A stretch of 64,000 nucleotides of DNA, taken from the NCBI RefSeq assembly GCF_963921235.1, contig NC_086108.1:16244001-16308000 (forward strand), written 5' to 3'. The translations under genes were made by a program, and so were the position numbers. Below, piece after piece: positions 361 through 16,223 of the stretch. Under the pieces are notes generated by a model. That model made no database searches. It saw nothing but the letters and a program-made list of their open reading frames with translations, and was not told the DNA's origin. The stretch's first letter is position 1; every line of letters begins with the position of its first letter. The stretch is from Mobula hypostoma (lineage: Eukaryota).

Positions 361-1164
361 TAAACTACTAGGCAAGGTAGAAAGTACTCAAAAGCGGTAA
401 GTGTTGAGGGGATCCACAAAGGTTTGATTTAATTACCTTAATTTACATTTATAGAATTATCAATCTAATTCTTGCCCACACTCAGCTGTGGTTATACAGC
501 ACCTGTGTACTGTAATTTTGTATACTGTATTTTTATGGTTTATGGAAGCAGAGCAGCACTGCAAAAAAATAAATAAATTCCAGTCTAATAATCAGAATAT
601 TCAACGTACGGTTTAAGAAGATTAAATGGTAATTTTATTAATGTTTAAGATATTTAATGATCTGCTGATTAAACTGAGAAAAATCATTTTTGCTTTTCGG
701 GGAGAGTTTCTATGACTAGCAGGAAGCATTTTGCGTGCAGAGTTTGAGGTTTCCTTCTGAAATGCTAGTTAACCTCAGATCAATTATTAATTTCATATCT
801 GATATTAGATTTCAGCTAATCAAAATTATTTAGTGATACACAGTAAAGGGGAGTTTAAGGAATTAGGTCACTGATCAGTCATAACCTTGCTGAATATTAA
901 AAGCAGCTGAAGGGGTTAAACAGGTATTCCTCTCATCAGATCCTGAATCCTCTAACAATACTGTTGAGTTTTACAAATTAGATTTTAGACAAAGGTATGA
1001 CCTGAAAGAAAATTTGGTTTTAACTTTTATTCCATGCTAAACAATGAAAAGTAAAAGAAATGAGATTAAACAATAAGATTATAATTCTGTCATAGATACT
1101 TCACCTCTATTTTTTACAAAGTTATACCCCCCTCCAAAAATATTGGTTGAAAATTAATACATAC

Positions 1165-3467
1165 AGGTCTAGGACAAAGATCTGGAGATAATATTTCTTC
1201 TTTATCCTCATCACTGTCATCTCTTTCAGTTGAAGTCTGTAACTGGACACCAGCTCCACTTTGTACCTCCATATACTTGGGAGATGACCTGGGTGAGGAT
1301 ACTTCAGCTGATTTGAGACATAACATTTGGTTAGTTAGTTCAATCTTTTCATCTCTAGCCTTTTTGATTTGCTGGAATTCTTTGACTGCATCTTTCAGAT
1401 AGGAAGACAGGATATCAGCAGCCAAAGAGCTAGCTTTTGTCTCTTTGTCCTTCTGTTCTTTTCTGAAGTTTTCATTGTCTTCAAAAATGGCCTTTGACTC
1501 CACCACTTTAAAATCCTCACTGTCAAGCATTTTTTCAGATTCAGAACTGAGGCCTGGTACTCTCAGTTGTGCCTCAAGTTGCTTCTTCTCCTTGTTCAAT
1601 AGATCCAAGAGAGGGGTTGGTGTTTTTTTATGAACAGGAGATGATAATTCTTTTTCACTGGGAGAATGCACAGACAACTCAGTGAGGAAATCAGCATCCT
1701 TCTCCAGTGTAATTTTGGGTGGCTTCTTAATGGATACATCAGCCACACTGTGCGTTTCATCTTGATCTTTAAAATTAGGTGGTTGTTCCTCCTTATGAAA
1801 TTCGGGCACACTCTCTAAATTCTGATCATTTAAAGATTTACTGATATCATGAACCAAATCAATGGCAATAGACTCAGAAAACAGAACGTTTGCAATTGGG
1901 TCATTTAAATTGTTTTCAGACTGAGTCGACTTAAAATCAATTTGATCAGAGGTTTTCTTGAGGTAATATCCACACTCTTCTTGCAGCTTTGATTCATCTT
2001 CTGGAAGCTCTGGCCTTCCTTCTTCTCCGCTGTCTTGATCTTGATCTAATTTGACTTCTAACAATGGGTCTTCTTCATCTTTTGCAGTATTGATGGCCTT
2101 ATCGTAACACTTGGGTAAAAGAGAAATCTTGTGGGGAGGTGCAAAAATGCCATACCTGTCCTTGCATCTGAAGTACACAACCCCATTATACATCCCATTA
2201 CCATTACCTTCTGGACTATCCAGCTCTACGCCAGCCCAAAACCCATCTGCAAAGTTGGTTCTTCCCTTAAAGCGTAGAGTGCCTGGCTGGATGCTACTAA
2301 CTAAAACTCTATCACCAATTTGGAATTCATGCATTTCATCAGTTTCGTGTGATGTAGGAGTGTGACAAGGAGAAGGAGAGTGTGAAGGCACAGGTGTCTG
2401 TTCCTCAGTTTCTGTAACACCGTGCTCTACATTTCTGCTCTGAATTGATTTCAAATCTAGAAATTTTTCTGAATGCACACTATCACAACTTGAAAAGGAC
2501 TTTTCACTTAGGTGCTCACTGATTTCGTCATCTGTGCTGATAACTGATGAAGCACTTTGAGAACGCTCCGTTCTTCCATCCACTTCCTCTTGTTTAGAGT
2601 GGTCAAGATCAGACAGCACCTGGAGTCCAGTGACACTTTCATTTCTTGCAGAAAGGGCAGTTACAGATTCAACATCACCTCTAAAACTTTTAATGCACAA
2701 ATTTTCATCCAAGTCTTCAGATAACTTCTGTCTTGATGACTCAAAGTCTTCTGAGTAAGTTGTCTCTTTTCCTGGGGAATGGTGGTCTAAATCTTGAGGA
2801 CACGAATCATTCTTTGACAATATTTTATCTAAAGTCCGATGATCAGACTTTGTATATTCCAAAGTATCGTATTTAATGGATTCTATAAATTTTATGGAAC
2901 TGGCTGAATGATCCTCCTTTTCAGAGCCGCCTTCTTTATCCAAGTAGCATTTCTCGTCCTTCAAATCCTCAAAATGCTCGATTTGAAAAGGGTGCTTTTC
3001 AATTTTAGAAAGATCTGTTTCTTGAGGTAATTTTTGAATACACTCAGGGACGCAGAGAGGCTCTGGTTTCTTATCATCTAATTTTAGCAAGAGTTCAGAT
3101 TTATCATTTTGTTCAGGAAGTCCAAATAAGTCATCTATTTCAGATTCTTCTGATTTTATATTTTCAAGTTCTTCCTGAACATCATCTTGCACGGATTGAT
3201 AATTAGACACTATTTTATCACTAGACCCATTCTCTGACCTGCTGACAGATGGATCTGGCAAGTGGCTAAATTCAGGTATTGCCTTTTGAGGCAAGACTGC
3301 TGGTACATTATCCAGTTGAGATTTCTTTTCAGGTATGGAAATTGGTGAAGCACTTCTAGACAAATCATCAGCTCGACTGTCAATGAGTGTGGACTTGCTT
3401 TTCTCCGATACTTGAAATTCACTGGGGCAGCTGGACTTCTGTCCATCAGGACTTGAAGATCTTTGCT
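1165..3467 (-). CDS. CEP350: CEP350 large exon with CAP-Gly domain (about 2125-2327)
   Basis: ttttttgttacAG/GTATGT; 2303-nt open exon; FQIGDRVLV...GTLRFKGRTNFADGFWAGVELDSPEGNGNG...YFRC...GIFAPPHKI; ends SPDLCPRP. Confidence 0.96.
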
Positions 3468-3639
3468 CTGTAACAAAAAATTATCAATGCTGCTCAATTA
3501 ATTTCTTTAAAGAAAAATATTACATCTAAGCATTGGTATTCAGAATGTCAGAGCTTCCTGAAGTATTTGTAACAAAAAATGCTTAAATTCAGTCTTAAAA
3601 GACAGTGATAACCAAAAAGCAAAGAGATCACAAATCAAA

Positions 3640-4930
3640 AATGAGATTTGCAGATGCTGGAAATTTTGAGCAACACACATAGAACACTGGATTAACTCAG
3701 CAAGCCAGGCAGCCCCTATGGACAAGAATAAACAGTTGACACATCAGATGAGAATGGAAAGAAAGGGGCACAAGCCAGAAATAATATGGGAAGAAATAAG
3801 GAGAGAAGGGAAGAAATCCATGTTCATGCAATCAGGCTGGAGATCACCCAGTCAGAATATGAGGTGCTACTGTTCCAGCCTGAGTTTGGCCTCATCATGG
3901 CAGTAAAGGAGACCATGGACAGACCTGACAGAATGGGAATGGGAAGTAGAATTGAAATGGGTACCCACTGGAAATCCCTGGCTTTTGTGGGGGATAGAGC
4001 GAAGGTGCTTTACAAAGCGGTGCCCCAATCTGTCAGGTCTCACTGATGTAGAAGCTGCACCGGGAGCACTGGATATCATAGATGACCCCAACAGAATTGC
4101 TGGTGAAGTGTTGCCTTGCCTGTAAGGACTGTTTGGGGCCTGAACAGTGGTGAAGGGAGAAGGGTTATGGAGGGAAAGACATGATTAGTAGTAGGATCCC
4201 AGTGGAGATGGTGGAAACTATGGAGAAGGATATGGAGGCATGTAGGATGGTGGGAGAACGGTTGAGGGCAGACGTGCAGGAAATAGAAGAGATACAGGTG
4301 GGGCAGCACTGAATGTGAAAGGGAAATCCCATTCGTTGGAAGAAAAAATTCAGAGGACATTTCAATGTTCTGGAATCGTCTGTTTCATTCTGAGAAAAGA
4401 TACAGTGCAGACAGAGGAACTGAGAAAACGGGATAGCCTTTTTTCAAGTGACAGAGTAGGAAGAGGTATAGTCAAGACAACTGTGAGAGACAGCGAGATA
4501 AAAAGGAATAGAAATGTCAGAGATAGACCAGAAAATCGTGGGTGAAAGGTGGAGGCAAAGTTGATAAAATTAACAAGCTCAGCATGGTGCAGGAAGCCAG
4601 GGCGTTACTAGTGAAGGCTTGAAATATGGACTGTCCCATATAGCTGCTGAAAAGGCATGTTTATAACTGCCCGAGGCTATACCTTTAGTTTGGAGAAAGT
4701 GGGAGGAGCCTAAGTCAAACTTGAGAGTAAGAACTAGTTCTGCCAGATGAGGAAAGATGGTGATGAAAGGGAACTGATAAAGTCTGTTGTCTAGAAAGAA
4801 GCAGAACTTTAAGGACTTCCTGGAAGGGGACGGAAATGTATAAACACTAAATCCATAGTGAAAATAAAGTGATCTGGGCCAGGCAACTGAAAGTGATTGA
4901 AGTGATGGACAGATTACAGACCACATAATG
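3640..4930 (-). mobile_element. Degraded Penelope-like element
   Basis: GIY-YIG remnant (DRLGHRFVKHLRSI...HFNSTSHSHS) and terminal sequence shared with the PLE at 59277-60789. Confidence 0.8.
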
Positions 4931-5464
4931 TTCTAAATGTTGGCTGCCAGAAAAGCATTCCACTTCCTACTTCTTTTTAAGATTAGGACTACATTATTTG
5001 TTACATTCATAAAACCAGACAGGCTTCCGATTACCATTGCATCTCTATTGGTAGAGTAATCCTTCAGTAAGTACCTACCATATGAATAGCCTGGATTGTG
5101 GGACTCCAGGTAGGTCTTACAAGGGATATTGTCAAGCCTGGAAAATTGTAGCTATGGAGGAAAGATTGGATAAGTTTGGGTTGTCTTCTAGTCTTGAGAT
5201 GTATAAAATTGAGAGGATTAAATGGCAGAAATGAGAAGGACTTAATTCCTGAACGGGGGATTAAAAAAAAACTGAGGTGCATAGTAACTGCTAGCAGTAT
5301 TAAAAGTATTTTCACTCAGAGGATGGTAGAGGGATCTGAAATACTTCAAAAGCATAAACTCCCCTCATATTTAAAAAGTAAATGAATATCTGAAGAGCTG
5401 TGATCAACTGGGCTACAGAGCCTGAGATAGGATGTGGAATTAGAAAGGGTAGCTCTTTTCTAGA

Positions 5465-6172
5465 TCTAAGGGGGGTTTCCTCTCTTATGTTACTGTGTAG
5501 GCTAATTAAAATGGCTTCTTTGTTATGTTATACTTGGGAATGCTTCTTTGTTATGTTAAACGCTGAGAAAATCCTTCCCGCTAGCAGTTTGTTGAATCAC
5601 ATTACTGATAAGAAGATGTTATGAACCGATTGGGATTGTTGTTATGTTTTTGGTGTATTTGAAGATACTGTATGTGCAGGATTTTTGGGGCAGAAGGCGG
5701 GAGAGAGGGACAGAGGATGAACCAGGCACTGTGATGTCCGCTAACGGGGGTCGGACCCCAAGGAGGGCATTCGGCGAGGAGAGGAGACGGAGACGAACTT
5801 GTGTAGAGCATCTGGTCAACCACCGTTGTTGGTCCCAGGCGGCCGGTCGAGGTGGTCCGAGGGGTCGCAGGGTGAAGAAGGGTCTTGAGCTCCAACTTTT
5901 TTGTGCACGAAGAGATTGAACTTTGATAAGTGTGGCACCTTTTATTTTCCTTTTATATTTTATTCTCTATTAATTATATAGTTCCAGTAATATCTATAAA
6001 CTGTAAATCATTTAATCATATCTGGTGTATTGTCTGTTATTTGGGTGGGGTGGGGTACATTACACAGCATCTACACAAACTACTACCCAGTTTGGCGGGG
6101 CCGAGGGCTGTTTCCCCAGACGACAGCGAGCCGAACGACCCTGAGGGTGGCCGGGAGGGGGGGTGGGCTACA
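5465..6172 (+). repeat. 5' LTR
   Basis: Aligns along its length with 8980-9686. Confidence 0.93.
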
Positions 6173-6175
6173 TTG

Positions 6176-6193
6176 TGGGGGCTCATCCGGGAT
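6176..6193 (+). promoter_or_regulatory. tRNA-Pro primer binding site
   Basis: TGGGGGCTCATCCGGGAT, one mismatch to the tRNA-Pro PBS TGGGGGCTCGTCCGGGAT, 3 nt after the 5' LTR. Confidence 0.9.
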
Positions 6194-6899
6194 TGAGTCT
6201 ACTGGTATGCTGTGTGGATGCCCTGTTTAAATCTGTAATGTATGTCTCTGTGGGTTATTTGCTGGTTATTGCTGTATACGTGGTAGGTGCAGTCTTTGTT
6301 CAAGTTCAGGCTGGCATTGATGAGTTGGACGTGGCACTCAGGGCTGTCCATGCTGTTGGGAGAGAGAGGAAAAAGTGGTCTGATTTGGAGGTAGTGTCTG
6401 CGAATAAATGTTCTAGCTCTGGCAGGCTCCACCTGGCGCTTGGGATAGTGTCCACCCCAAGAGGGGCGGAGGTGCGCGAGACATGGGCGGAGCGGATCTC
6501 TCAATTGCTAGATTAGTGGCAGTGCTCGGTTGAGGGAGAGCGACAGGGATTGGTTGAAAGTTTAAGTAGGCGGGCTGGTGACGGTGTTAGAGCTGTCAGG
6601 TTCACTTACACAGTAGTGACAGCTGTCAGTTATTTGAAAGAGGGGGGAAAGTTTTCAGTGTGTCTTCTCTGGCTAGGAGGGTGGCTAAATTGCTTGCAGT
6701 GCCAGGGGGATCATTTCAGGGGATCAGCCCCTCCTTCAGTTGTTCAGCTGACCAGAGAGGTGTTGGGAAACTTAGTGGAGGCCCAGTGGGGAAACGGCTT
6801 GGGGTCTCTGGGGAAGCACGTTCCTAGCAATGTACCAATGAACTTCCACAAGGAAAAGACCCTATTCCTGAAGGCTTAGAGGGATCACGCCCCAGGCTG

Positions 6900-7600
6900 T
6901 TGTTACGGATAGAGGGAAGCGATGCTAAAGCCATCCTCGACCCCGGGGCGCAGGTCAAGTTGTTGTACAGTTCGTTTTACAACCGGTGTCTGAAGCATTT
7001 ACCCTTGACAACCGCAAGGGCACCGGAGGTTTTGGATACCAGTGCCAGTAGTTATCCAGAAGACGATGACCCCGGAGTTCATGGGGGCATTGTCTGGGCA
7101 CCCAGCGTGTCAAGTTGCTTCTGAGGACGTGTGTAGCAGCCTTGAGCTGGTACTGAATTTAAGCGAAACCCAGCGGTGGTACATCCTGGGGAAAGTAGAC
7201 CCTCTTAGTAAATGCTCCGAACTACCACGAGGGAGGGGAGTTGACCGCTGAAGACACCTCAGTGAGAGAGAGGTTGCGGCAACTGGACCCTGGCACCGTG
7301 GAAGAGGGAGGCAGCATGTGTGCGGATTATGCGACGTGGTTTAATGTGCTGGATCTGAGGAATGGACATTGCCAGATCCCGAGGAGTGCGGCTGTCGAGC
7401 CGAAGACTGCCGTTATTAGTTCCCTAGGATTATTCTGATCCGAAAAGATGCCCAAGGGCATATCCGGAGCCCCTGCATCCTTCCCGCGGGGCATGAGGAA
7501 GACCATGGGGGAAGTGAAGGAGTGTGGAGTTTTGGCGTATGTGGATGACCGCCTCGAGCTTGGATTCGCCTGGGGGGACTATGAAACGAGGCGAGTGGCT
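6900..7600 (+). pseudogene. Decayed pol remnants (aspartic protease and partial RT)
   Basis: [13 protein letters not shown] protease-like motif; [15 protein letters not shown]...[13 protein letters not shown] motif; YVDD at 7538-7549; stops, frameshifts and large deletions. Confidence 0.8.
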
Positions 7601-7657
7601 GAGCCCGGGTGACAGAAACCAAGTGTCAAATGTGGAAGAGTTTTTGGCCGGAGGAGT

Positions 7658-8368
7658 TTGGTGCAATGTGAGAAAAATGACCTGACATACCAGTTGAACT
7701 TCCTGGTGTTGGAACAGACGGTGGTGGACCTGGGGATGGAAACCCAGGTCGTCAATCTGAATGAGACACAGGGGAGAGAGGGGATTTGCACCGCTGAACT
7801 GAGTGCTCAGAAATGCCAGCCGGAGACTGAGTGCCGCACTTGTGGGACAACCATTGCAGACTTGGAATTCACGCTTGTCAACGTGGAGAAGGAGCAACAG
7901 AATTCCGAGCCGACACTGCGGTCATGTACTGATGAATTAATCCAGCGAGAAGAAACAATGACCCACCTTCCAAGGGATCAGCAGAAACTCAAGACATCGA
8001 TTCAGAAAAGATTGGAAGACTTACAAGTTGGGGAAGATCAAGGAAGTGTTCTGACTAAGGCCAACAGAAAACCGAGAGCCCAGGGAGGGGAGTTTGACTA
8101 CACTCCCGAGGAGGTGAAGAAATGGAGGGCAGATCTCAGAAAAGGGAGGCGGATGCTTGAAAGGAACTTGAAGATGTCTATCGCGAGTTTAAATGAAGTG
8201 GAAAAACTGAAAGTTGACCTGGAAGACGTCATCAGGAAGGAAAAACTGGAGGCTGAACATCCTCTAACTGCTGCTTCTCAGGTCAGGGAGGAAGAAGCTG
8301 GTGGGGTAACTGCGTCCCAGATGGAGATGGCCAAGAACCCTGAGTCAGAACTGCTGAGGCTGTGGTGA
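7658..8368 (+). CDS. Open 236-aa frame containing a captured myosin heavy-chain rod-like segment (7670-8251)
   Basis: EKNDLTYQL, DLEFTLVNVEKEQ, QKRLEDLQVGEDQGSVLTKAN and LKMSIASLNEVEKLKVDLEDVIRK are colinear with sarcomeric MYH rod motifs; expression unknown. Confidence 0.7.
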   Translation: MVQCEKNDLTYQLNFLVLEQTVVDLGMETQVVNLNETQGREGICTAELSAQKCQPETECRTCGTTIADLEFTLVNVEKEQQNSEPTLRSCTDELIQREETMTHLPRDQQKLKTSIQKRLEDLQVGEDQGSVLTKANRKPRAQGGEFDYTPEEVKKWRADLRKGRRMLERNLKMSIASLNEVEKLKVDLEDVIRKEKLEAEHPLTAASQVREEEAGGVTASQMEMAKNPESELLRLW

Positions 8369-8966
8369 GAGTTGAAGGAGTTCCCGAAGAAGCTGACGTC
8401 TCGACTGCAGGAGGCTGTAGGGGTAGCCCTGGCTAAATGTTTCAGTTTGGAGAAACTCGAACAGCAGCTACCGATCGAGGGAATGAGGAAGAATATGGAT
8501 TCGAAGGATGATGTGCTGCACATGTGGTACACACTGACTTTCGCTAACTTTCCTGTGATTGAGGAAGAGACCTTTGGCCCTTCTCCCACTGAGTCAGGTG
8601 TAGTGGGGAGGGCTAGCTGTAGGCAGTCTGAGTTGTGGCAGGACCAGGAAGGTAAAGAAGTGGGGCCCCGGACACAGGATAGGGGGCTCCGAGCTGTAGT
8701 GGTGGCCTGAGTGAGAGAGGAGTTGGCAAGCAGGCCCGAGGTATCCCTAGTAGTGTCTGAGCCTTTTGGGTTTAGGTGAGAGGGTACGGAGGTCTTAGAG
8801 GGTTAAGAAGATCCCAGACAGGTTGGCCTATGTAGCGCCCGTGGGCGGGCGTAAGGTCCACTGTTTGGGGAGCACTGTCACTGTGTGTATCTGTGTATGT
8901 GTGTGTTGTGTGTCTGTAGGACGGGTTGGCGAGTTATTTAGAAGTCATGAGGGCATGACTTTATTT

Positions 8967-8979
8967 GGTGGGGGGAGAG
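8967..8979 (+). promoter_or_regulatory. Polypurine tract
   Basis: GGTGGGGGGAGAG directly before the TG of the 3' LTR. Confidence 0.85.
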
Positions 8980-9686
8980 TGTAAGGGGGTTTCATCTCTT
9001 ATTTTACTGTGTAGGCTAATTAAAATGGCTTCTTTGTTATGTTATACTTGGGAATGCTTCTTTGTTATGTTAAACGCTGAGAAAATCCTTCCCGCTAGCA
9101 GTTTGTTGAATCACGTTACTGATAAGATGATGTTATGAACCAATTGGGATAGTTGCTATGTTTTTGGTGTATTTGAAGATACTGTATACGTGGGGTTTTT
9201 GGGGCAGAAGGCGGGAGAAAGGGACAGAGGATGAACCAGGTGCTGTGATGTCCGCTAACGGGGTCGGACCCCAAGGAAGTCGTTCGGCGAGGAGAGGAGA
9301 CGGAGACGGACTCGGACTCATGTAGAGTGTCTGGTCGACCACCGTTGTTGGTCCCAGGCGGCCGGTCGAGGTGGTCCGAGGGGTTGCAGGGTGAAGAAGA
9401 AGTGTCTTGAGCTCCAACTTTTTTGTGCACGAAGAGACTGAACTTTGATAGTGTGGCACCTTTTATTTTCCTTTTATATTTTATTCTCTATTAATTATAT
9501 AATTCCAGTAATTTCTATAAACTGTAAATCATTTAATCGTATCTGGTATATTGTCTGTTAATTGGGTGGGATGGGGTACATCACACAGCATCCACACAAA
9601 CTATTACCCAGTTTGGTGGGGCCGAGGGCTGTTTCCCTAGACGACAGCGAGCCGAGCGACCCTGAGGGTGGCCAGGGGGCGCTACA
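8980..9686 (+). repeat. 3' LTR
   Basis: TGTAAGGGGG...GCTACA followed by TSD TAGA. Confidence 0.93.
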
Positions 9687-9917
9687 TAGACCATCACAGA
9701 TACAATTCCCATCATATATATTTTTATAGTTCTATGAGTTTGGCTTAGGAAATAGGAAGGTAGGTATTATTTTTAGAAACACAATTTAGTTGTTCAACTA
9801 ATTTTTAAAGTGTTTATACTTGTAAACTTTCAACTTAAAGGCTTTCTTTCATCAAGTTTTTTTGGAATGTGTCATCTCAGGTGTTTACTGAGAGAACATT
9901 TTGATATGCGGACGTAC

Positions 9918-10510: not shown

Positions 10511-11568
10511 TGCTCTCAAACGCATCTCTCCCATTTCACGCACATCTGCTCTCACCCCATCCTTCTGCCACCCCACTAGGGATAGGGTTCCCCTTGTCCT
10601 CACCTACCACTCCACCAGCCTCCGGGTCCAACAAATAATTCTCCGTAACTTCTGCCACCTCCAACAGGATCCCACCACCAAGCACATCTTTCCCTCCCCC
10701 CCGCCACTTCTACTTTCCGCAGGGATCTCTCCCTATGCGACTCCCTTGTCCATTCGCACCCCCCCCGATCCCTTCCCACCAATCTCCCTCCCGGCACTTA
10801 TCCTTGTAAGCGGAACAAGTGCTACATGTGCCCTTACACTTCCTCCCTCACCACCATTCAGGGTTAGGGTTAGGGTTAGGGTTAGACAGTCCTTCCAGGT
10901 GAGGTGACACTTCACCTGTGAGTCGGCTGGTGTGATATACTGCATTCGGTGCTCCCGGTGCGGCCTTCTATATACTGGTTCAGATTCAGACTGGGAGACC
11001 ATTTCGCTGCACACCTACGCTCTGTCCGCCAGAGAAAGCAGGATCACCCAGTGGCCACACATTTTAATTCCACGTCCCATTCCCATTCTGATATGTCCAT
11101 CCATAGCCTCTTCTACTGTCAAGATGAAGCCACACTCAGGTTGGAGGAACAACACCTGATATTCTGTCTAGGTAGCCTCCAACCTGATGGCATGAACAGA
11201 CTTCTCTAACTTCTGTTAATGCCCCTCCACTTCTTACCCCATCCCCATTTATTTTTTTCCCCTTTCTTTCTCTTTTTTTCCTCCCTCTGTCCCTCTCACT
11301 ATATCTTCCTCTGATGCTCCCCCGCCCCTTTCTTTCTCCCTAGGCCTCCTGTCCCATGATCCTCTCCCTTCTCCAGCCCTGTATCCCTTTTGCCAATCAA
11401 CTTTCCAGCTCTTAGGTTTCATTTCAGATCTCCCCCTCCCCCTTTCAAATCTCTTACTATTCTTTCAGTTAGTCCTGACAAAGGGTCTCGGCCTGAAATG
11501 TCAACTGTACCTCTTCCTATAGATGCCGCCTGGCCTGCTGCGTTCCACCAGCATTTTTTGAGTGTGTT
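10511..11568 (+). mobile_element. 5'-truncated Penelope-like element
   Basis: Colinear with 59668-60752; GIY-YIG remnant (IYCIRCSRCGLLYTG; RLGDHFAAHLRSV...EEQHLIFCLGSLQPDGMN); degenerate hammerhead motif at 11471-11506. Confidence 0.9.
10864..10885 (+). repeat. Short interstitial telomeric repeat (TTAGGG)3TTAG
   Basis: Perfect vertebrate telomere repeats absent from the paralogous PLE site near 60011-60030. Confidence 0.9.
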
Positions 11569-11703: not shown

Positions 11704-13727
11704 TTTGGAGAAAGAAGGCTGCGGGTGAACGGCTAAGGATTTCCGGAGCAAAGGCAGTTTTACTACTCGGGGTAAAAGAGAGGCAACACGGCACAGGTGC
11801 GTAACATCAGCCAGTAGAGCGGGAAAAATTTAAAAAGAAGACCGCCATATCCAGCGGGCAGCAGAGTGAGAGGTGGCAGTGTGATAGGGTTTTGGCTCAA
11901 CAGGCTTAGGCGGTAACAGGACGAGGCGAGGTAGGTTTACCTGTGTTAATTGCAGAAAAGAAGTAGTATGTGTGAGAGGCCGGTTTTCTGTGCTCGGTGT
12001 CAGATGTGCAAGGGCCTGGAGTCTCCCAGCCTCCCGGACAGCCATATCTGCACCCGGTGTGTCAAGCTGCAGCTCCTAAGGGACCGAGTTCGGAACTGGA
12101 GATGCAGCTCAATGACCTTTGTCTGGTCAGGGAGAGCGAGGAGGTGATAGGAAGGAGTTATAGTCAGGTGGTCACACCGGGGGCCATGGAAGACAGACAA
12201 GTGGGTCACAGTCAGGAGGAGGAAGGGGAAGAGTCAGGTACTAGAAAGTACCCCTGTGGCTGTACCCCTTGACAATAAGTACTCCTGTTTGAGTACTGTT
12301 GGGGGGGCGGGGGGGGGAACAGCCTACCTGGGGAAAGTAACAGTCGTCGTGCTTCTGGCACAGAGTCCGGCCCTGTGGCTCAGACAGGTAGGGAAAGGAA
12401 GAGGAAGGCAGTAGTGATAGGAGATTCTATAGTTAGGGGGCCAGACAGGCGATTCTGTGGACGCAAGAAAGAAACTCGGATGGTAGTTTGCCTCCCAGGT
12501 GCCAAGGTCCAGGATGTTTCAGATCACATCCAAGATATCCTGTAGTGGAAGGGAGCTGTGGTACATATTGTTACCAATGACATAGGTAGGAAAAGGGAAG
12601 AGGTCCTGAAAAAAGACTACAGGGAGTTAGGAAGGAAGTTGAGAAGCAGGACCGCAAAGGTAGTAATCTCGGGATTACTGCCTGTGCCACGCGACAGTGA
12701 GAAAAGGAAGAGAATGAGGTGCAGGATAAATGCGTGGCTGAGGGATTGGAGCAGGGGGCAGGGATTCAGATTTCTGGATTATTGGGACCTCTTTTTGGGC
12801 AGGTGTGACCTGTACAAAAAGGACGGATTGCACTTGAATCCCAGGAGGACCAATATCCTGGCGGGGAGGTTTGCTAAGGCTACTGGGGAGAGTTTAAACT
12901 AGAATTGTTGGGGAGTGGGAACTGAACTGAAGAGACTGGGGAAGAAGCGGTTGGGCTCACAAATAGAGAAAGCTTGTAGACGGTGCGAGAAGGAGGATAT
13001 GTAGGTGATAGAGAAGGGACGCGCTTAGACGGACAGTTTGAGATGTGCCTATTTTAATGCAAGGAGTGTTGTGAACAAAGCGGATGAGCTTAGGGCGTGG
13101 ATCAGGACTTGGAGATATGATGTAGTGGCCATTACAGAGACTTGGATGGCTCAGGGACAGGCATGGTTACTTCAAGTGCCGGGTTTTAGATGTTTCAGAA
13201 AGGACAGGGAGGGGGCGTGGCACTGTTGATCAGAGATAGTGTCACGGCTGCAGAAAAGGTGGACGCCATGGAGGGATTGTCTGCGGAGTCTCTGTGGGTG
13301 AAGGTTAGGAACAGGAAGGGGTCAATAACTTTACTGGGTGTTTTTTTAGAGGCCACCCAATAGCAACAGGGATATCAAGGAGCAGATAGGGAAACAGATT
13401 CTGGAAAGGTGTAACAATAACAGAGTTGTCGTGATGGGAGATTTTAATTTCCCAAATATCGATTGGCATCTCCCTAGAGCAAGGGGTTTAGATGGGGTGG
13501 AGTTTGTCAGGTGTGTTCAGGAAGGTTTCTTGACACAATATGTAGATACGCCCACAAGAAGAGGAGAGGCTGTACTTGATTTGGTATTGGGAAATGAACC
13601 TGGTCAGGTGTCAGATCTCTCAGTGAGAGAGCATTTTGGAGATAGTGATCATAATTCTATCTCCTTTACAATAGCATTGGAGAGAGATAGGAACAGACAA
13701 GTTAGAAAAGCGTTTAATTGGAGTAAT

Positions 13728-13939
13728 GCAAACAACAGGAATTCTGCAGATGCTGGAAATTCAATCAACACACATCAAAGTTGCTGATGAATGCAGCAGG
13801 CCAGGCAGCATCTCTAGGAAGAGGTACAGTCGACGTTTCAGGCCGAGACCCTTCGTCAGGACTCTTCTGTAACGTCGACTTTACCTCTTCCTAGAGATGC
13901 TGCCTGGCCTACTGTGTTCACCAGCAACTTTGATGTGTG
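13728..13939. mobile_element. Fold-back PLE-terminus insertion inside CR1 ORF2
   Basis: Minus-strand arm 13730-13863, plus-strand arm 13871-13939; flanked by ttaatt(g/a)gagtaat duplication. Confidence 0.85.
13828..13863 (-). ncRNA. Minimal type I hammerhead ribozyme motif (PLE-associated)
   Basis: Minus strand reads AGTC-CTGACGA-AGGGTCTCGGCCT-GAAA-CGTC-GACT. Confidence 0.7.
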
Positions 13940-16223
13940 TTAATTAGAGTAATTGCTATCAGGCAGGAAATTGGAAGCTTAAATTGAGAACAGATGTTCT
14001 CAGGGAAAAGTACGGAAGAAATGTGGCAAATGTTCACGAGATATTTGTGTGGAGTTCTGCACAGGTACGTTCCAATGAGACAGGGAAGTTATGGTAGGGT
14101 ACAAGAACAGTGGTGTACAAAGGCTGTGATAAATCTAGTTAAGAAGAAAAGAACAGCTTACAAAAGGTTCAGAGAGCTAGGTAATGTTAGAGATCAGAAG
14201 ATTATAAGACTAACAGGAAGGAGCTTACGAAGGAAATTAAGAGAGACAGAAGGGGCCATGAAAAGGCCTTGGTGGGTAGGATTAAGGAAAACCCCAAGGC
14301 ATTCTACAAGTATGTGAAGAGCAAGAGGATAAGACGTGAGAGAATAGGACCTATCAAGTGTGACAGTGGGAAAGTGTGTATGGAACCAGAGGAAATAGCA
14401 GAGGTACTTAATGAATACTTTACTTCAGTATTCACTATGGAAAAAGATCTTGGTGATTGTTGTGATGACCTGCAGCAGACTGAAAAGCTTGAGCATGTAG
14501 ATATTAAGAAAGAGGATGTGCCGGAGCTTTTGGAAAGCATCAAGTTGGATAAGTCGCCGGGACCAGATGAGATGTACCCCAGGCTACTGTGGGAGGCAAG
14601 GAAGGAGATTGCTGAGCCTCTGGCGATGATCTTTGCATCATCAATGGGGACGGGAGAGATTCCAGAGGATTGGAGGGTTGCAGATGTTGTTCCTTTAACC
14701 AAGAAAGGGAGCAGAGATAGCCCAGGAAATTATAGACCAGTGAGTCTTACTTCAGTGGTTGGTAAGTTGATGGAGAAGATCCTGAGAGGCAGGATTTATG
14801 AACATTCGGAGAGGCATAATATGATTACGAATAACCAGCATGGCTTTGTCAAGGGCAGGTTGTGCCTTATGAGCCTGATTGAATTTTTTGAGGATGTGAC
14901 TAAACACATTGATGAAGGAAGAGCAGTAGATGTAGGGTATATGGATTTCAGTAAGGCATTTTCTCCAGCAAGCCCCATGCAAGGCTTATTGAGAATGTAA
15001 GGAGGCATAGGATCCAAGGGAACAATGCTTTGTGGATCCAGAACTGGCTTGCCCACAGAAGGCAAAGAGTGGTTGTAGACGGGTCATTTTCTGCACGTAA
15101 GTGTCTCAGGGATCTATTCTGGGACCCTTACTCTTTGTGACTTGTATAAATGACCTGGATGAGGAAGTGGAGGGATGGGTTAGTAAGTTTGCTGATGACA
15201 CAAAGGTTGGAGGTTTTGTGGATAGTGTGGAGGGCTGTCAGAGGTTACAGCGGGACATTGATAGGATGCAAAACTGGGCTGAAAAGTGACAGATGGAGTT
15301 CGACCCAGATAAGTGTGAAGTGGTTCATTTTGGTAGGTCAAATATGATGGCAGAATGTAGTATTAATGGTAAGACTCTCGGCAGTGTGGAGGATCAGAGG
15401 GATCTTGGGGTCTGAGTCCATAGGACGTTCAAAGCAGCTGAGCAGGTTGACTCTGTGGTTAAGAAGGCGTACTGTGTATTGGAATTTAGGAGCCGAGAGG
15501 TAATGTTGCAGCTATATAGGACCCTGGTCAGACCCCACTTGGAGTACTGTGCTCTGTTTTGGTCACCTCACTACAGGAAGGATGTGGAAGCCACAGAAAG
15601 AGTGCAGAGGAGATTTACAAGGATGTTGCCTGGATTGGGGAGCATGCCTTATGAAAACAGGTTGAGTGAACCCGGCCTTTTCTCCTTGGAGCAACGGAGG
15701 ATGAGAGGTGACCTGATAGAGGTATATAAGATGACGAAAGGCATTGATCGTGTGGATAGTCAGAGGCTTTTTCCCAGGGCTGAAATGGTTGCCAGAAGAG
15801 GACACAGGTTTAAGGTGCTGGGGAGTAGGTACAGAGGAGATGTCAGGGGTAAGTTTTTTTATGCAGAGAGTGGTGAGTGTATGGAATGGGCTGCCAGCAA
15901 CGGTGGTGGAGGCGGATACGATAGGGTCTTTTAAGAGACTTTTGGACAGGTACATGGAGCTCAGAAAAATAGAGGGCTATGGGTAAGCCTAGGAATTTCT
16001 GAGGTAGAGACATGTTCGGCACAACATTGTGGGCTGAAGGGCCTGTATTGTGCTGTAGGTTTTCTATGTTTCTATGTAACAGTCAAGTGCAACCTAATTT
16101 TTAAAAAAGTACTTTCAATAGAGTATGTAGGCATTCTATTATGTTTAACTGATAAAACAGTAATACTACTAATATTCTGAGAAGTATTTTTTCATCTAAG
16201 GCTGTATTGCCCAGTGAGATTAC

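Follow-up and report, generated by a model that had tools for sequence, protein, structure and literature searches.

The two-LTR element at positions 5465-9686 of the window (the whole 64,000-nucleotide stretch of Mobula hypostoma contig NC_086108.1 analyzed here) very probably represents an old, defunct member of a non-autonomous Ty3/gypsy family of myliobatiform rays, that is, an amplified LTR-mediated retrocopy with a MYH16-type myosin cargo. The element is about 4.2 kb long, and all of its features described below lie on the forward strand.

The boundaries of the element were read directly from the sequence. It is flanked by identical 4-nt target site duplications (TAGA, 5461-5464 and 9687-9690) and carries a 5' LTR of 708 nt (5465-6172), which ends in CA and starts with TC, probably a mutated TG, and a 3' LTR of 707 nt (8980-9686) with the TG..CA termini. 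Comparison of the LTR pair yields 658 matches, 40 mismatches (30 of them transitions) and 7 gap events, corresponding to 94.3% identity and a JC distance of 0.060. The primer binding site (PBS; TGGGGGCTCATCCGGGAT, 6176-6193), which we take to be complementary to the 3' end of tRNA-Pro, lies 3 nt past the 5' LTR; it reads TGGGGGCTCGTCCGGGAT in copy L009 and appears as CpG-decay variants in the other copies. The polypurine tract (PPT; GGTGGGGGGAGAG, 8967-8979) and the LTR start that follows it are retained, with single changes, in all 20 copies analyzed, which were chosen as those most similar to the window and are not a random sample. All the structural hallmarks listed in an earlier sequence-only reading of this DNA (paired LTRs, TSD, PBS and PPT) are therefore present.

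To judge by protein comparisons, the backbone is that of a Ty3/gypsy element with a PNMA-type gag. The remnants of gag, protease (PR), reverse transcriptase (RT) and RNase H are colinear with two gypsy polyproteins, P0049 and P0051. In Pfam searches, the Hypanus polyprotein P0049 presents PNMA, zf-CCHC, RVT_1, RNase H and integrase (IN) domains, and the domains of P0049 and P0051 include RVT_1, RNase H, the integrase zinc-binding domain and rve; the order PR-RT-RNase H-IN was derived from match positions along P0049 and from its C-terminal integrase sequence. The gag remnant (6424-6762), frameshifted with respect to pol in the window copy, encodes the N-terminal part of a PNMA-type capsid (Pfam PNMA E 3.8e-4 in the window and 2.2e-5 in copy L003; tblastn P0051 156-226, E 2.5e-6, and P0049 155-326, E 0.003). 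The zinc-knuckle and protease remnant (6717-7064) aligns with P0049 437-554 (45% identity, E 9e-20) and weakly with Pfam RVP, and its active-site motif reads LDPG instead of LDTG. The RT remnant (7304-7591, with YVDD at 7538-7549) aligns with P0049 893-988 (49% identity, E 1e-21) and with positions 66-156 of the 205 in the RVT_1 profile (E 4.3e-5), the N-terminal part of RT being deleted. A short RNase H remnant (FGRRSLVQCEKNDLTYQLNFLVLEQTVVD, 7643-7729) matches P0049 1167-1195 and P0051 1121-1150 without gaps at 47-52% identity, and the related proteins P0004, P0006 and P0014 run on into more RNase H sequence (..CLYGIKFEV).

The integrase domain (rve) gave no Pfam match in the three forward frames of the element, which thus lacks the complete RT, RNase H and integrase of an autonomous element. 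The peptide RVKKIPDRLAY (8798-8830), recognized by eye in another frame and previously described as an integrase-tail remnant, does resemble the C-terminal R..PPxRLTYD of P0050-P0052 and is gypsy integrase tail-like, but it is a short motif and the likeness is weak. The stretch from the pol remnants to the 3' LTR contains no env-like frame and gave no Pfam match. A retrovirus with a transduced oncogene was accordingly rejected as a candidate; the backbone of this element, which the sequence-only reading had compared with oncogene-transducing retroviruses, matches Ty3/gypsy polyproteins.

Downstream of RT, the pol remnant continues in frame into a myosin-rod-like segment. The stop-to-stop open frame spans 251 codons (7613-8365); it is indeed open after the TGA that separates it from the RT frame (7610-7612), and the 236 codons reported earlier had been counted from 7658. 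Since the open frame through the myosin part begins 5' of 7610 in 8 of the 20 copies, this TGA is not ancestral. The TGA that closes the frame (8366-8368) occurs in six of 20 copies, a minority, and base 8366 is a C in sequencing contigs of all four organisms compared. The earlier placement of the myosin similarity from 7658-7670 onwards holds for the colinear rod match, but not for its first 60-70 nt (EKNDL..QL), which belong to RNase H. Myosin-derived sequence begins at about 7730 and, instead of ending by 8368 as had been proposed, extends beyond the TGA at 8366 as far as about 8525; it has suffered internal deletions, and some 265 rod codons are left in the window copy.

Three blocks can be distinguished in this cargo. 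Block A (7730-8290; phmmer, junction comparison and tree) corresponds to residues ~923-1116 of sarcomeric myosin and contains one short internal deletion. Block B (8291-8365; EEAGG..ESELLRLW) corresponds to residues ~1150-1176 and is shared with the relatives P0007 and P0009; phmmer matches EEAGGVTASQMEMAKNPESELLR to MYH7 1151-1173. Block C (8369-8525, residues ~1385-1432) is weak in the window copy alone, where the match to MYH7 1385-1423 has an E of 0.18, and is clearer in its relatives (L063, P0007 and P0014), reading AQTKCSSLEKTKQQLQ in L063. It is followed by the tail of the founder frame (8526-8710; ..WYxLxFAxFP.IEEETF.., joined to the myosin at about residue 1432), which is common to L063, the Hypanus protein P0005, P0009 and P0014, is closed by the common stop of the family at 8708-8710, and showed no match to four gypsy polyproteins.

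A phmmer search against PDB identified the cargo as Myosin-7-like (E 1.9e-16 to 2.2e-16): ORF residues 40-227 align colinearly with Myosin-7 residues 913-1097, and the register is held across 188 residues; a library search returned 42 matches, full-length myosins among them. The reading of this likeness as chance coiled-coil composition, or as a piece of genomic DNA taken up by recombination, has a practically negligible probability. It could draw on the lack of a Pfam Myosin_tail_1 match to the ORF at E values up to 1, and on exon-by-exon tblastn searches in which ten stretches from four myosin loci (L051-L060) gave only noise with the ORF. These four loci, however, are non-sarcomeric paralogues, 34-50% identical to a sarcomeric myosin, and chance composition is at odds with an E of 2e-16 held in register over 188 residues, with 80% DNA identity to a host exon and with the placement of the cargo in the tree described below. 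Similarity beyond coiled-coil composition, as first suspected, is hence well founded. A word-based search of the ORF against longer proteins found no match, the ORF being too diverged. The segment was also considered as a MYH16 gene in its own right and rejected, as it has no motor domain, full rod or Pfam myosin-tail match (neither Myosin_head nor Myosin_tail_1 was matched in the ORF or its read-through frames).

The closest host sequence lies in a gene at C68:14.61 Mb, represented by two exons with canonical AG/GT sites and an intervening intron of 2,993 nt (GT..AG). At the protein level the window ORF shares 64.6% identity with the first of these exons, and at the DNA level 79.9%; older family proteins reach 72-79% protein identity with the same exon. 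No gypsy match was found within 18 kb of the two exons, and no upstream exon of the gene within 14 kb. The best named full-length relatives of the exon are annotated as 'myosin-16-like' and also include Narcine MYH16. In the inferred tree, the element proteins, the host exons and Narcine MYH16 form one clade (support 99/98) that adjoins teleost MYH16-like proteins and is separate from the MYH7-like ones. These comparisons support a MYH16-type host myosin gene as the putative source and agree with the initial preference for MYH16 over MYH7.

Sarcomeric MYH genes of the host present exon junctions at about residues 985, 1044, 1094 and 1122 (P0011 numbering). Positions 7730-8254 of the window correspond to P0011 923-1097 as one unbroken stretch that crosses three conserved junction positions, with one intron of the source-like gene seen directly and the other junctions inferred from paralogues. 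Furthermore, position 1094 is bridged in both L063 and P0007 and position 1122 in L063, and the 2,993-nt intron is absent from both. The cargo is therefore intron-less and spans host exon junctions, as the sequence-only reading had anticipated, and the absence of introns at three to four junction positions speaks against a captured piece of genomic DNA.

A cargo without introns might also stem from a LINE-made processed retrocopy of a myosin mRNA that landed inside a master LTR element, the whole being amplified afterwards. LINEs with endonuclease and esterase domains occur in the same window, and the amplification data are equally compatible with this route. We nevertheless consider it highly improbable: the cargo corresponds to the interior of the mRNA (residues ~900-1432 of some 1,940) and has none of the 3' end typical of LINE retrocopies; runs of six or more A are absent from 7600-9000; and integrase is replaced exactly and in frame, with RNase H on one side of the cargo and the integrase tail on the other. 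A retrocopy nested later in this one element is likewise contradicted by the lack of poly(A) around the insert and by the presence of the insert in all copies. The favored origin, capture by an LTR element, would have proceeded by template switching.

Under this proposal, the starting point would be an autonomous gypsy element whose single frame encoded a PNMA-type gag followed by protease, RT, RNase H and integrase. Reverse transcription would have proceeded partly from a co-packaged, spliced host mRNA of MYH16 type, the polymerase quitting its own RNA just past RNase H and rejoining it near the integrase tail, so that integrase would have been swapped in frame for residues ~900-1432 of the myosin rod. 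The chimera retained the LTRs, PBS, PPT and 5' gag region that are visible in the window, and would have been transcribed, packaged, copied and integrated by proteins of autonomous relatives acting as putative helpers. Later deletions, evident among the copies, trimmed the myosin cargo as well as gag, protease, RT and RNase H and gave rise to subfamilies, of which the 4.2-kb form in the window is among the most reduced.

The older copy L063, with 72-82% DNA identity to the window across 6569-8982, retains an intact protease motif (LDTGSQ), more of RT, RNase H up to about P0049 residue 1290 and myosin from about residue 901. Its 5' junction falls in a short acidic stretch (..DEEQES..) that is similar both to DEEWES in P0049 and to AEQDT in the MYH16-like P0046, the parental sequences at capture having been lost. 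The window and L063 lineages each hold myosin pieces missing from the other. On sequence comparison, L063 shows that the cargo took the place of integrase and was formerly longer.

The chimera is widely dispersed. A 26-mer across the RNase H-to-myosin junction occurs at at least 500 places, compared with none for the reversed control, and, among 1,485 first-look candidates, all 40 places scored cover the full 1,098-nt query at 93-100% identity. As copy numbers are lower bounds, the family is estimated at several hundred places, probably over a thousand. An element without integrase whose junction recurs on this scale fits the non-autonomous mobilization envisaged from the single copy. Annotated relatives in Mobula, Hypanus and Hemitrygon have one 3' junction in common, and sequencing contigs from four organisms cover it at a likeness of at least 90%, those of one (X17) bridging the junction. 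Diverged subfamilies exist, and the chimera is present in two families of rays and at least four species. The window and L063 share their 3' junction and tail with Hypanus P0005 and with P0009 and P0014 from Mobula, which implies one capture that preceded the split between Mobula and stingrays. With regard to possible helpers, all 30 scored P0049-like places were confirmed as matches, four of them spanning residues 1-1565. DNA upstream of one such full-length copy contains two short blocks colinear with the window LTR at 75-79% identity; a PBS-like word was absent from the 1.9 kb preceding one full-length relative.

The long open frame raised the question of a functional chimeric protein. The founder had one long gag-pol-myosin frame. 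A gag-pol-myosin protein might have been selected either for the element, as an oligomerizing module in assembly or packaging, or for the host, as a restriction factor joining gag to a coiled coil. In favor of this, the founder frame was long and open despite the large divergence of the cargo from its source gene, one copy is still open over 716 codons, a recurrent 120-nt deletion keeps the frame, and the window differs from L063 by 1 stop compared with a mean of 4.4 from random placement of the 109 differences, a marginal result (P for 1 or fewer = 0.05). Amino-acid constraint, however, is not apparent: among the 20 copies (190 pairs), pN/pS is 0.78 in frame versus 0.59 and 0.56 out of frame, and overall, including comparisons with L063, in-frame values (0.72-0.78) fall within or above the wrong-frame range (0.56-0.85). 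The dN/dS of 0.37 between host exon and window covers only 48 codons and mixes a conserved host branch with the element branch, and is uninformative. In addition, 175 residues of the cargo show a gain of 5 Pro, 9 Gly and 5 Cys, compared with 0, 2 and 1 in real myosin, changes expected to disrupt a coiled coil; stops are scattered and differ from copy to copy among the 20 copies, and hundreds of copies carry them; and the ORF is no longer scored by the Pfam myosin-tail model. A selected chimera is thus very unlikely. Copies decay neutrally after insertion, and the open 251-codon frame consequently reflects descent from the founder frame, not function. The contrast between an open myosin frame and a broken pol, initially taken as a signal, loses its meaning in the light of that single founder frame and of neutral decay.

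In the same genome, an Sds3 model has 119 dispersed matches, many of them unbroken over more than half of the model. Together, the dispersed SUDS3-like copies and the myosin family suggest that gypsy capture of host messages may be a recurrent source of repeats in these genomes. A broader version, that this gypsy lineage is a serial transducer which repeatedly trades integrase or pol for spliced host mRNAs, whose helper-dependent chimeras out-multiply the parent and whose founder frame was kept open because translation of the chimera aided the element, strikes us as rather unlikely. If it were true, the rod fragment could act, for instance, as an oligomerizing tail on a Gag fusion, and host coiled coils would be usable retroelement parts.

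No publication describing a myosin fragment in LTR elements of rays turned up in the literature searches. The family is a clear vertebrate case of an LTR-mediated retrocopy turned into a successful mobile family, with several subfamilies in two families of rays, an outcome that, in the accessible portion of Tan et al. (2016, Genome Res 26:1663, PMC5131818), is only proposed, from cases with few insertion sites. Annotations of Mobula and Hypanus label fragments of the element as 'myosin-16-like', 'putative uncharacterized protein MYH16' or 'myosin heavy chain ...-like', and such mislabeled fragments will contaminate myosin gene counts and phylogenies. The common 3' junction, in turn, provides a marker for dating and for batoid phylogeny.

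The ray family can be compared with several known systems. ETn and MusD constitute a pair of non-autonomous and autonomous LTR elements. As in this pair and in MaLR/MERVL, an internally replaced element keeps its LTRs, PBS and PPT and would be copied by a coding relative; in both pairs the defective form outnumbers the helper. To our knowledge, the replacing sequence in those pairs has no known source, whereas that of the ray element is identifiable as host myosin mRNA. The gag-onc genomes of acutely transforming retroviruses carry spliced host mRNA, fused in frame to a viral protein, in a defective and helper-dependent genome. The ray element resembles them in its spliced host message, in a cargo in frame with an element protein and in its defective, presumably helper-dependent genome; it differs in being a Ty3/gypsy element without env, in which the capture is ancient and germ-line and the cargo, a piece of structural rod, plays no part in growth control. 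The Bs1 element of maize is likewise an LTR retroelement devoid of some pol functions, with pieces of host genes in a hybrid open frame (PMC13317346). According to the available sections of that source, this plant element transduced three genes and is said to have given rise to a new chimeric gene, whereas the ray element carries a single cargo in a vertebrate host, is massively amplified and gives no sign of a kept function. The closest parallel is with the LTR-mediated retrocopies of animals, in which, in the part of Tan et al. (PMC5131818) consulted here, a piece of spliced host mRNA likewise lies between discontinuous parts of an LTR retrotransposon. That text proposes an origin by two template switches inside the particle, with in-frame chimeric proteins as a possible product, cites the retroviral capture of host mRNA, names MaLR/MERVL as a non-autonomous/autonomous pair and already suggests that such loci may be re-copied as non-autonomous elements. 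The fly cases it presents occupy one or few insertion sites, whereas the ray family occupies at least 500 places, in diverged subfamilies and in at least four species.

The myosin-bearing frame lies within a 4.2-kb element with two LTRs (window 5465-9686), in which the 5' LTR (5465-6172) reads TC..CA and the 3' LTR (8980-9686) reads TG..CA, with TAGA on both flanks. A putative primer-binding site (TGGGGGCTCATCCGGGAT), located 3 bases past the 5' LTR and presumably pairing with the 3' end of tRNA-Pro, reads TGGGGGCTCGTCCGGGAT in family copy L009 and appears as CpG-decay variants in other copies. A polypurine tract (8967-8979) abuts the 3' LTR, and both tract and LTR start are retained, with single changes only, in all 20 family copies compared, which are those most like the window copy and not a random sample. 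When aligned, the LTRs agree at 658 positions and differ at 40, of which 30 are transitions, with 7 gap events (94.3% identity; JC distance 0.060); at vertebrate-like rates this gives a very rough insertion age of ten to thirty million years. About 2 kb away lies a 788-codon open exon encoding a CAP-Gly domain (1117-3480, minus strand; Pfam E 5e-21), which we take to belong to a CEP350-type host gene. The window also holds a LINE remnant (12546-14317, plus strand), in which a GDSL/SGNH esterase domain (12546-12899) precedes one of AP-endonuclease type (13350-13784), and two frames (3870-4184, minus; 10922-11206, plus) without Pfam match that have in common the word ..HFNSTSHSHSD/V.S.H.L.YC.DEA.LRLEEQ.., presumably the GIY-YIG end of Penelope-like elements.

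Sequence comparison identifies the backbone as a gutted Ty3/gypsy element. The long frame of copy L003 matched four gypsy polyproteins, the best being the 1,566-aa P0049 of Hypanus sabinus, whose domains include a gag of PNMA type, a zinc knuckle, RVT_1, RNase H and integrase. Using the four as tblastn queries reveals colinear remnants of gag (6424-6762; P0049 residues 155-326, P0051 residues 156-226), zinc knuckle and protease (6717-7064; 45% identity, E 9e-20; active site LDPG, not LDTG), an RT with its N-terminal part deleted (7304-7591; 49% identity, E 1e-21) and an RNase H motif (7643-7729; P0049 residues 1167-1195, 48-52% identity, ungapped). None of the element's forward frames contains an integrase domain. 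The sequence-only reading is confirmed for the YVDD motif (7538-7549), the TGA (at 7610) and the 251-codon open frame (7613-8365; counted there as 236 codons from 7658). Its opening "myosin" motif EKNDL..QL (7670-7730) is a decayed RNase H word, ..SERNYPTHKLEFLALKWAVVD..; the related protein P0004 reads NYPTYQLNFLALEQ here and then continues into more RNase H sequence. The myosin therefore starts at about 7730, where the HMMER alignment to myosin also begins.

Downstream of this point the insert matches the myosin rod, as the earlier reading had claimed. A phmmer search of the open frame against PDB aligns its residues 40-227 colinearly with residues 913-1097 of Myosin-7 (E 1.9e-16 to 2.2e-16), and a second stretch, EEAGGVTASQMEMAKNPESELLR, with residues 1151-1173. 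The next frame (from 8369) matches residues 1385-1423, weakly in the window copy (E 0.18) and obviously in relatives such as P0007. The Pfam myosin-tail model gives no score for the open frame, which shows the extent of its drift. A HMMER search of 1.84 billion representatives returned 42 matches, headed by short proteins that are 53-89% identical. Several of these (P0002, P0004, P0009, P0010) have the same RT remnant as the window copy, and real myosins rank below these family proteins.

When a Narcine protein fragment (P0012) was used as query, the ray genome presented one exon-like match, at C68:14.61 Mb, where two exons lie 2,993 nt apart, bounded by canonical splice acceptors and donors, and no gypsy match occurs within 18 kb. 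The first exon is 64.6% identical to the window frame (79.9% in DNA) and 72-79% identical to older family proteins, compared to 59% for a lungfish MYH7-like protein; among named proteins it is closest to Narcine "MYH16 isoform X2" (88%) and to "myosin-16-like" proteins of teleosts (64-66%). A maximum-likelihood tree (21 rows, 216 columns) unites element proteins, host exons and Narcine proteins in a clade (support 99/98) adjoining teleost MYH16-like proteins and separate from MYH7-like ones, with the caveats that the host row covers only 37% of columns and the window row is oddly composed. Taken together, these comparisons identify the cargo as a myosin of MYH16 type, in agreement with the earlier preference for MYH16 over MYH7. 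At 0.65 Mb from this MYH16-type gene, at least eight sarcomeric myosin genes lie in tandem (C68:15.31-15.90 Mb; spacing roughly 65-95 kb), with a large exon recurring at 15310192, 15388009, 15463309, 15536477, 15617580, 15711039, 15827892 and 15892409. Elsewhere, later parts of the myosin-tail model (positions 514-920 and 552-778) have long matches that lack introns and contain several stops, at C18:48745523-48746731 and C50:30689110-30689772 (both minus) and on C184 and C157; they may represent additional processed myosin pseudogenes or additional repeats with cargo.

Host exon structure was read by searching the genome with part of the myosin reference P0011. Sarcomeric genes (the C68:15.3-15.9 Mb cluster, C2 and C40) have junctions near residues 985, 1044, 1094 and 1122, and the visible exon ends of the C68:14.61 Mb gene agree with the last three. 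In the same search the window copy is a single unbroken match (7730-8254, residues 923-1097) and hence spans three junction positions. The older copy L063 also crosses junction 1122, and L063 and P0007 read ..EEVI(K/R)KKELEISSVNTKLE.. with no break at the real 2,993-nt intron. On these alignments the cargo came from spliced RNA, and the proposed intron-less capture is borne out. That the cargo comes from the interior of the myosin message argues against a retrocopy made by LINE machinery, as does the lack of any A-run of six or more in window 7600-9000.

Capture of spliced RNA can be followed further in L063 (on C91), whose DNA shows 72-82% identity to the window element across 6569-8982 and which is far less reduced. 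Its protease retains LDTGSQ, its RT is 76% identical to P0049 and its RNase H extends to about P0049 residue 1290, followed by myosin from about residue 901 to 1131; the sequence then skips to about 1400-1432 and ends in the tail also found in the window copy. This layout indicates that cargo replaced the integrase between the RNase H end and the C-terminal part of integrase. At its 5' end the fusion falls within a short acidic word, ..DEEQES.., similar to both parents. Such likeness is predicted by microsimilarity-guided template switching (Tan et al. 2016, PMC5131818), of which the L063 fusion may be a trace. Myosin residues of about 1150-1176 and 1385-1400 are kept by the window lineage and lost in L063, whereas about 1095-1131 is kept by L063 and lost in the window lineage; the ancestral segment was therefore longer, and different parts were lost in each lineage. 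One deletion fuses two ..LEEA.. words (RRDLEEA in P0011 and ELEEAKKKL), a pattern that slippage between short repeats would commonly leave. An in-frame deletion of 120 nt (window 7793-7914) recurs in contigs of three organisms and in proteins P0001 and P0043 and marks a separate subfamily.

The chimera is a large family. A query spanning 7613-8710 (1,098 nt) matched essentially full length at 93-100% identity in 40/40 scored places (1,485 first-look candidates). The window's 26-mer across the RNase H/myosin junction occurs at no fewer than 500 places with up to three mismatches (248 forward and 252 reverse among those listed), at least 100 of them exact, versus 0 for the reversed 26-mer. A more diverged protein query added a layer of intron-free matches 40-74% identical (best 150 scored of 1,156 candidates). 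The closest copy, L002 (97%; C50:16205177-16206264, minus), lies on the same contig about 46 kb upstream and may have arisen by a duplication or a hop over this short range.

Judged by their public names, proteins of the family occur in Mobula birostris, M. hypostoma, Hypanus sabinus and Hemitrygon akajei; the myosin names that many of them bear in the public record are annotation artefacts. The window copy, L063, Hypanus P0005, Mobula P0009 and P0014 have the 3' junction and tail in common, which argues for a single capture before the manta/stingray split. In runs of four organisms, contigs with a likeness of at least 90% cover the internal region, and in one of the four (X17) they bridge the 7729/7730 junction. 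Each of the four has C at base 8366, where the window copy has TGA.

This TGA is also missing in 14/20 of the close copies. The frame from 7613 to the family's common stop at 8708 is fully open in 4/20, the open frame begins upstream of 7610 in 8/20, and in one copy 716 codons are open, starting in gag and reaching 8366. This pattern indicates that the founder carried one long gag-pol-myosin frame; the window's 251 codons are the remainder between two private stops, and frameshifts affect gag and pol of this copy. Pooled pN/pS (20 copies, 190 pairs) is 0.78 in frame versus 0.59 and 0.56 in the wrong frames; between the window and L063 it is 0.72 versus 0.58 and 0.85. The cargo has gained 5 Pro, 9 Gly and 5 Cys in 175 residues. 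Constraint is hinted at only by the scarcity of stops between the window and L063 lineages (1 observed, 4.4 expected; P 0.05). Our interpretation is that copies decay neutrally and that any selection for an open frame in the replicating lineage is weak. Antisense frames are open across the cargo (8278-8802, 174 codons; 7430-7921, 163 codons; both minus), the former also in L003; such frames are expected opposite a Glu/Lys-rich coding strand and are probably meaningless.

The element retains all cis parts for reverse transcription and integration, integrase is absent, protease and RT are crippled, and identical junctions are widely dispersed in the genome, consistent with the non-autonomous mobilisation that had been proposed. 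Transcription would start in the 5' LTR, packaging and copying would be performed by proteins of autonomous relatives, and integration would make the 4-bp duplication. Such relatives are abundant: P0049-like sequence was found in 30/30 scored places (50,449 first-look candidates), four spanning residues 1-1565, and DNA upstream of one relative matches the window LTR in two colinear blocks (75-79% identity). Any of them is a candidate helper only. One P0049-like copy lies at C50:16219898-16223209 (80% identical over residues 445-1547).

Literature searches returned no description of ray LTR elements that carry part of a myosin. The Sds3 (SUDS3/BRMS1) model has at least 119 dispersed matches in the genome (best 150 scored of 331 candidates; e.g., C76:11186977-11187441, minus), many of them single unbroken stretches over more than half of the model. 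The myosin chimera is real and well explained, and its kind is already known. The gag-onc fusions of retroviruses are of the same kind. So are Bs1 of maize (PMC13317346) and, in animals, LTR-mediated retrocopies (Tan et al. 2016, PMC5131818). What is unusual in the ray chimera is its success as a family, and its age.
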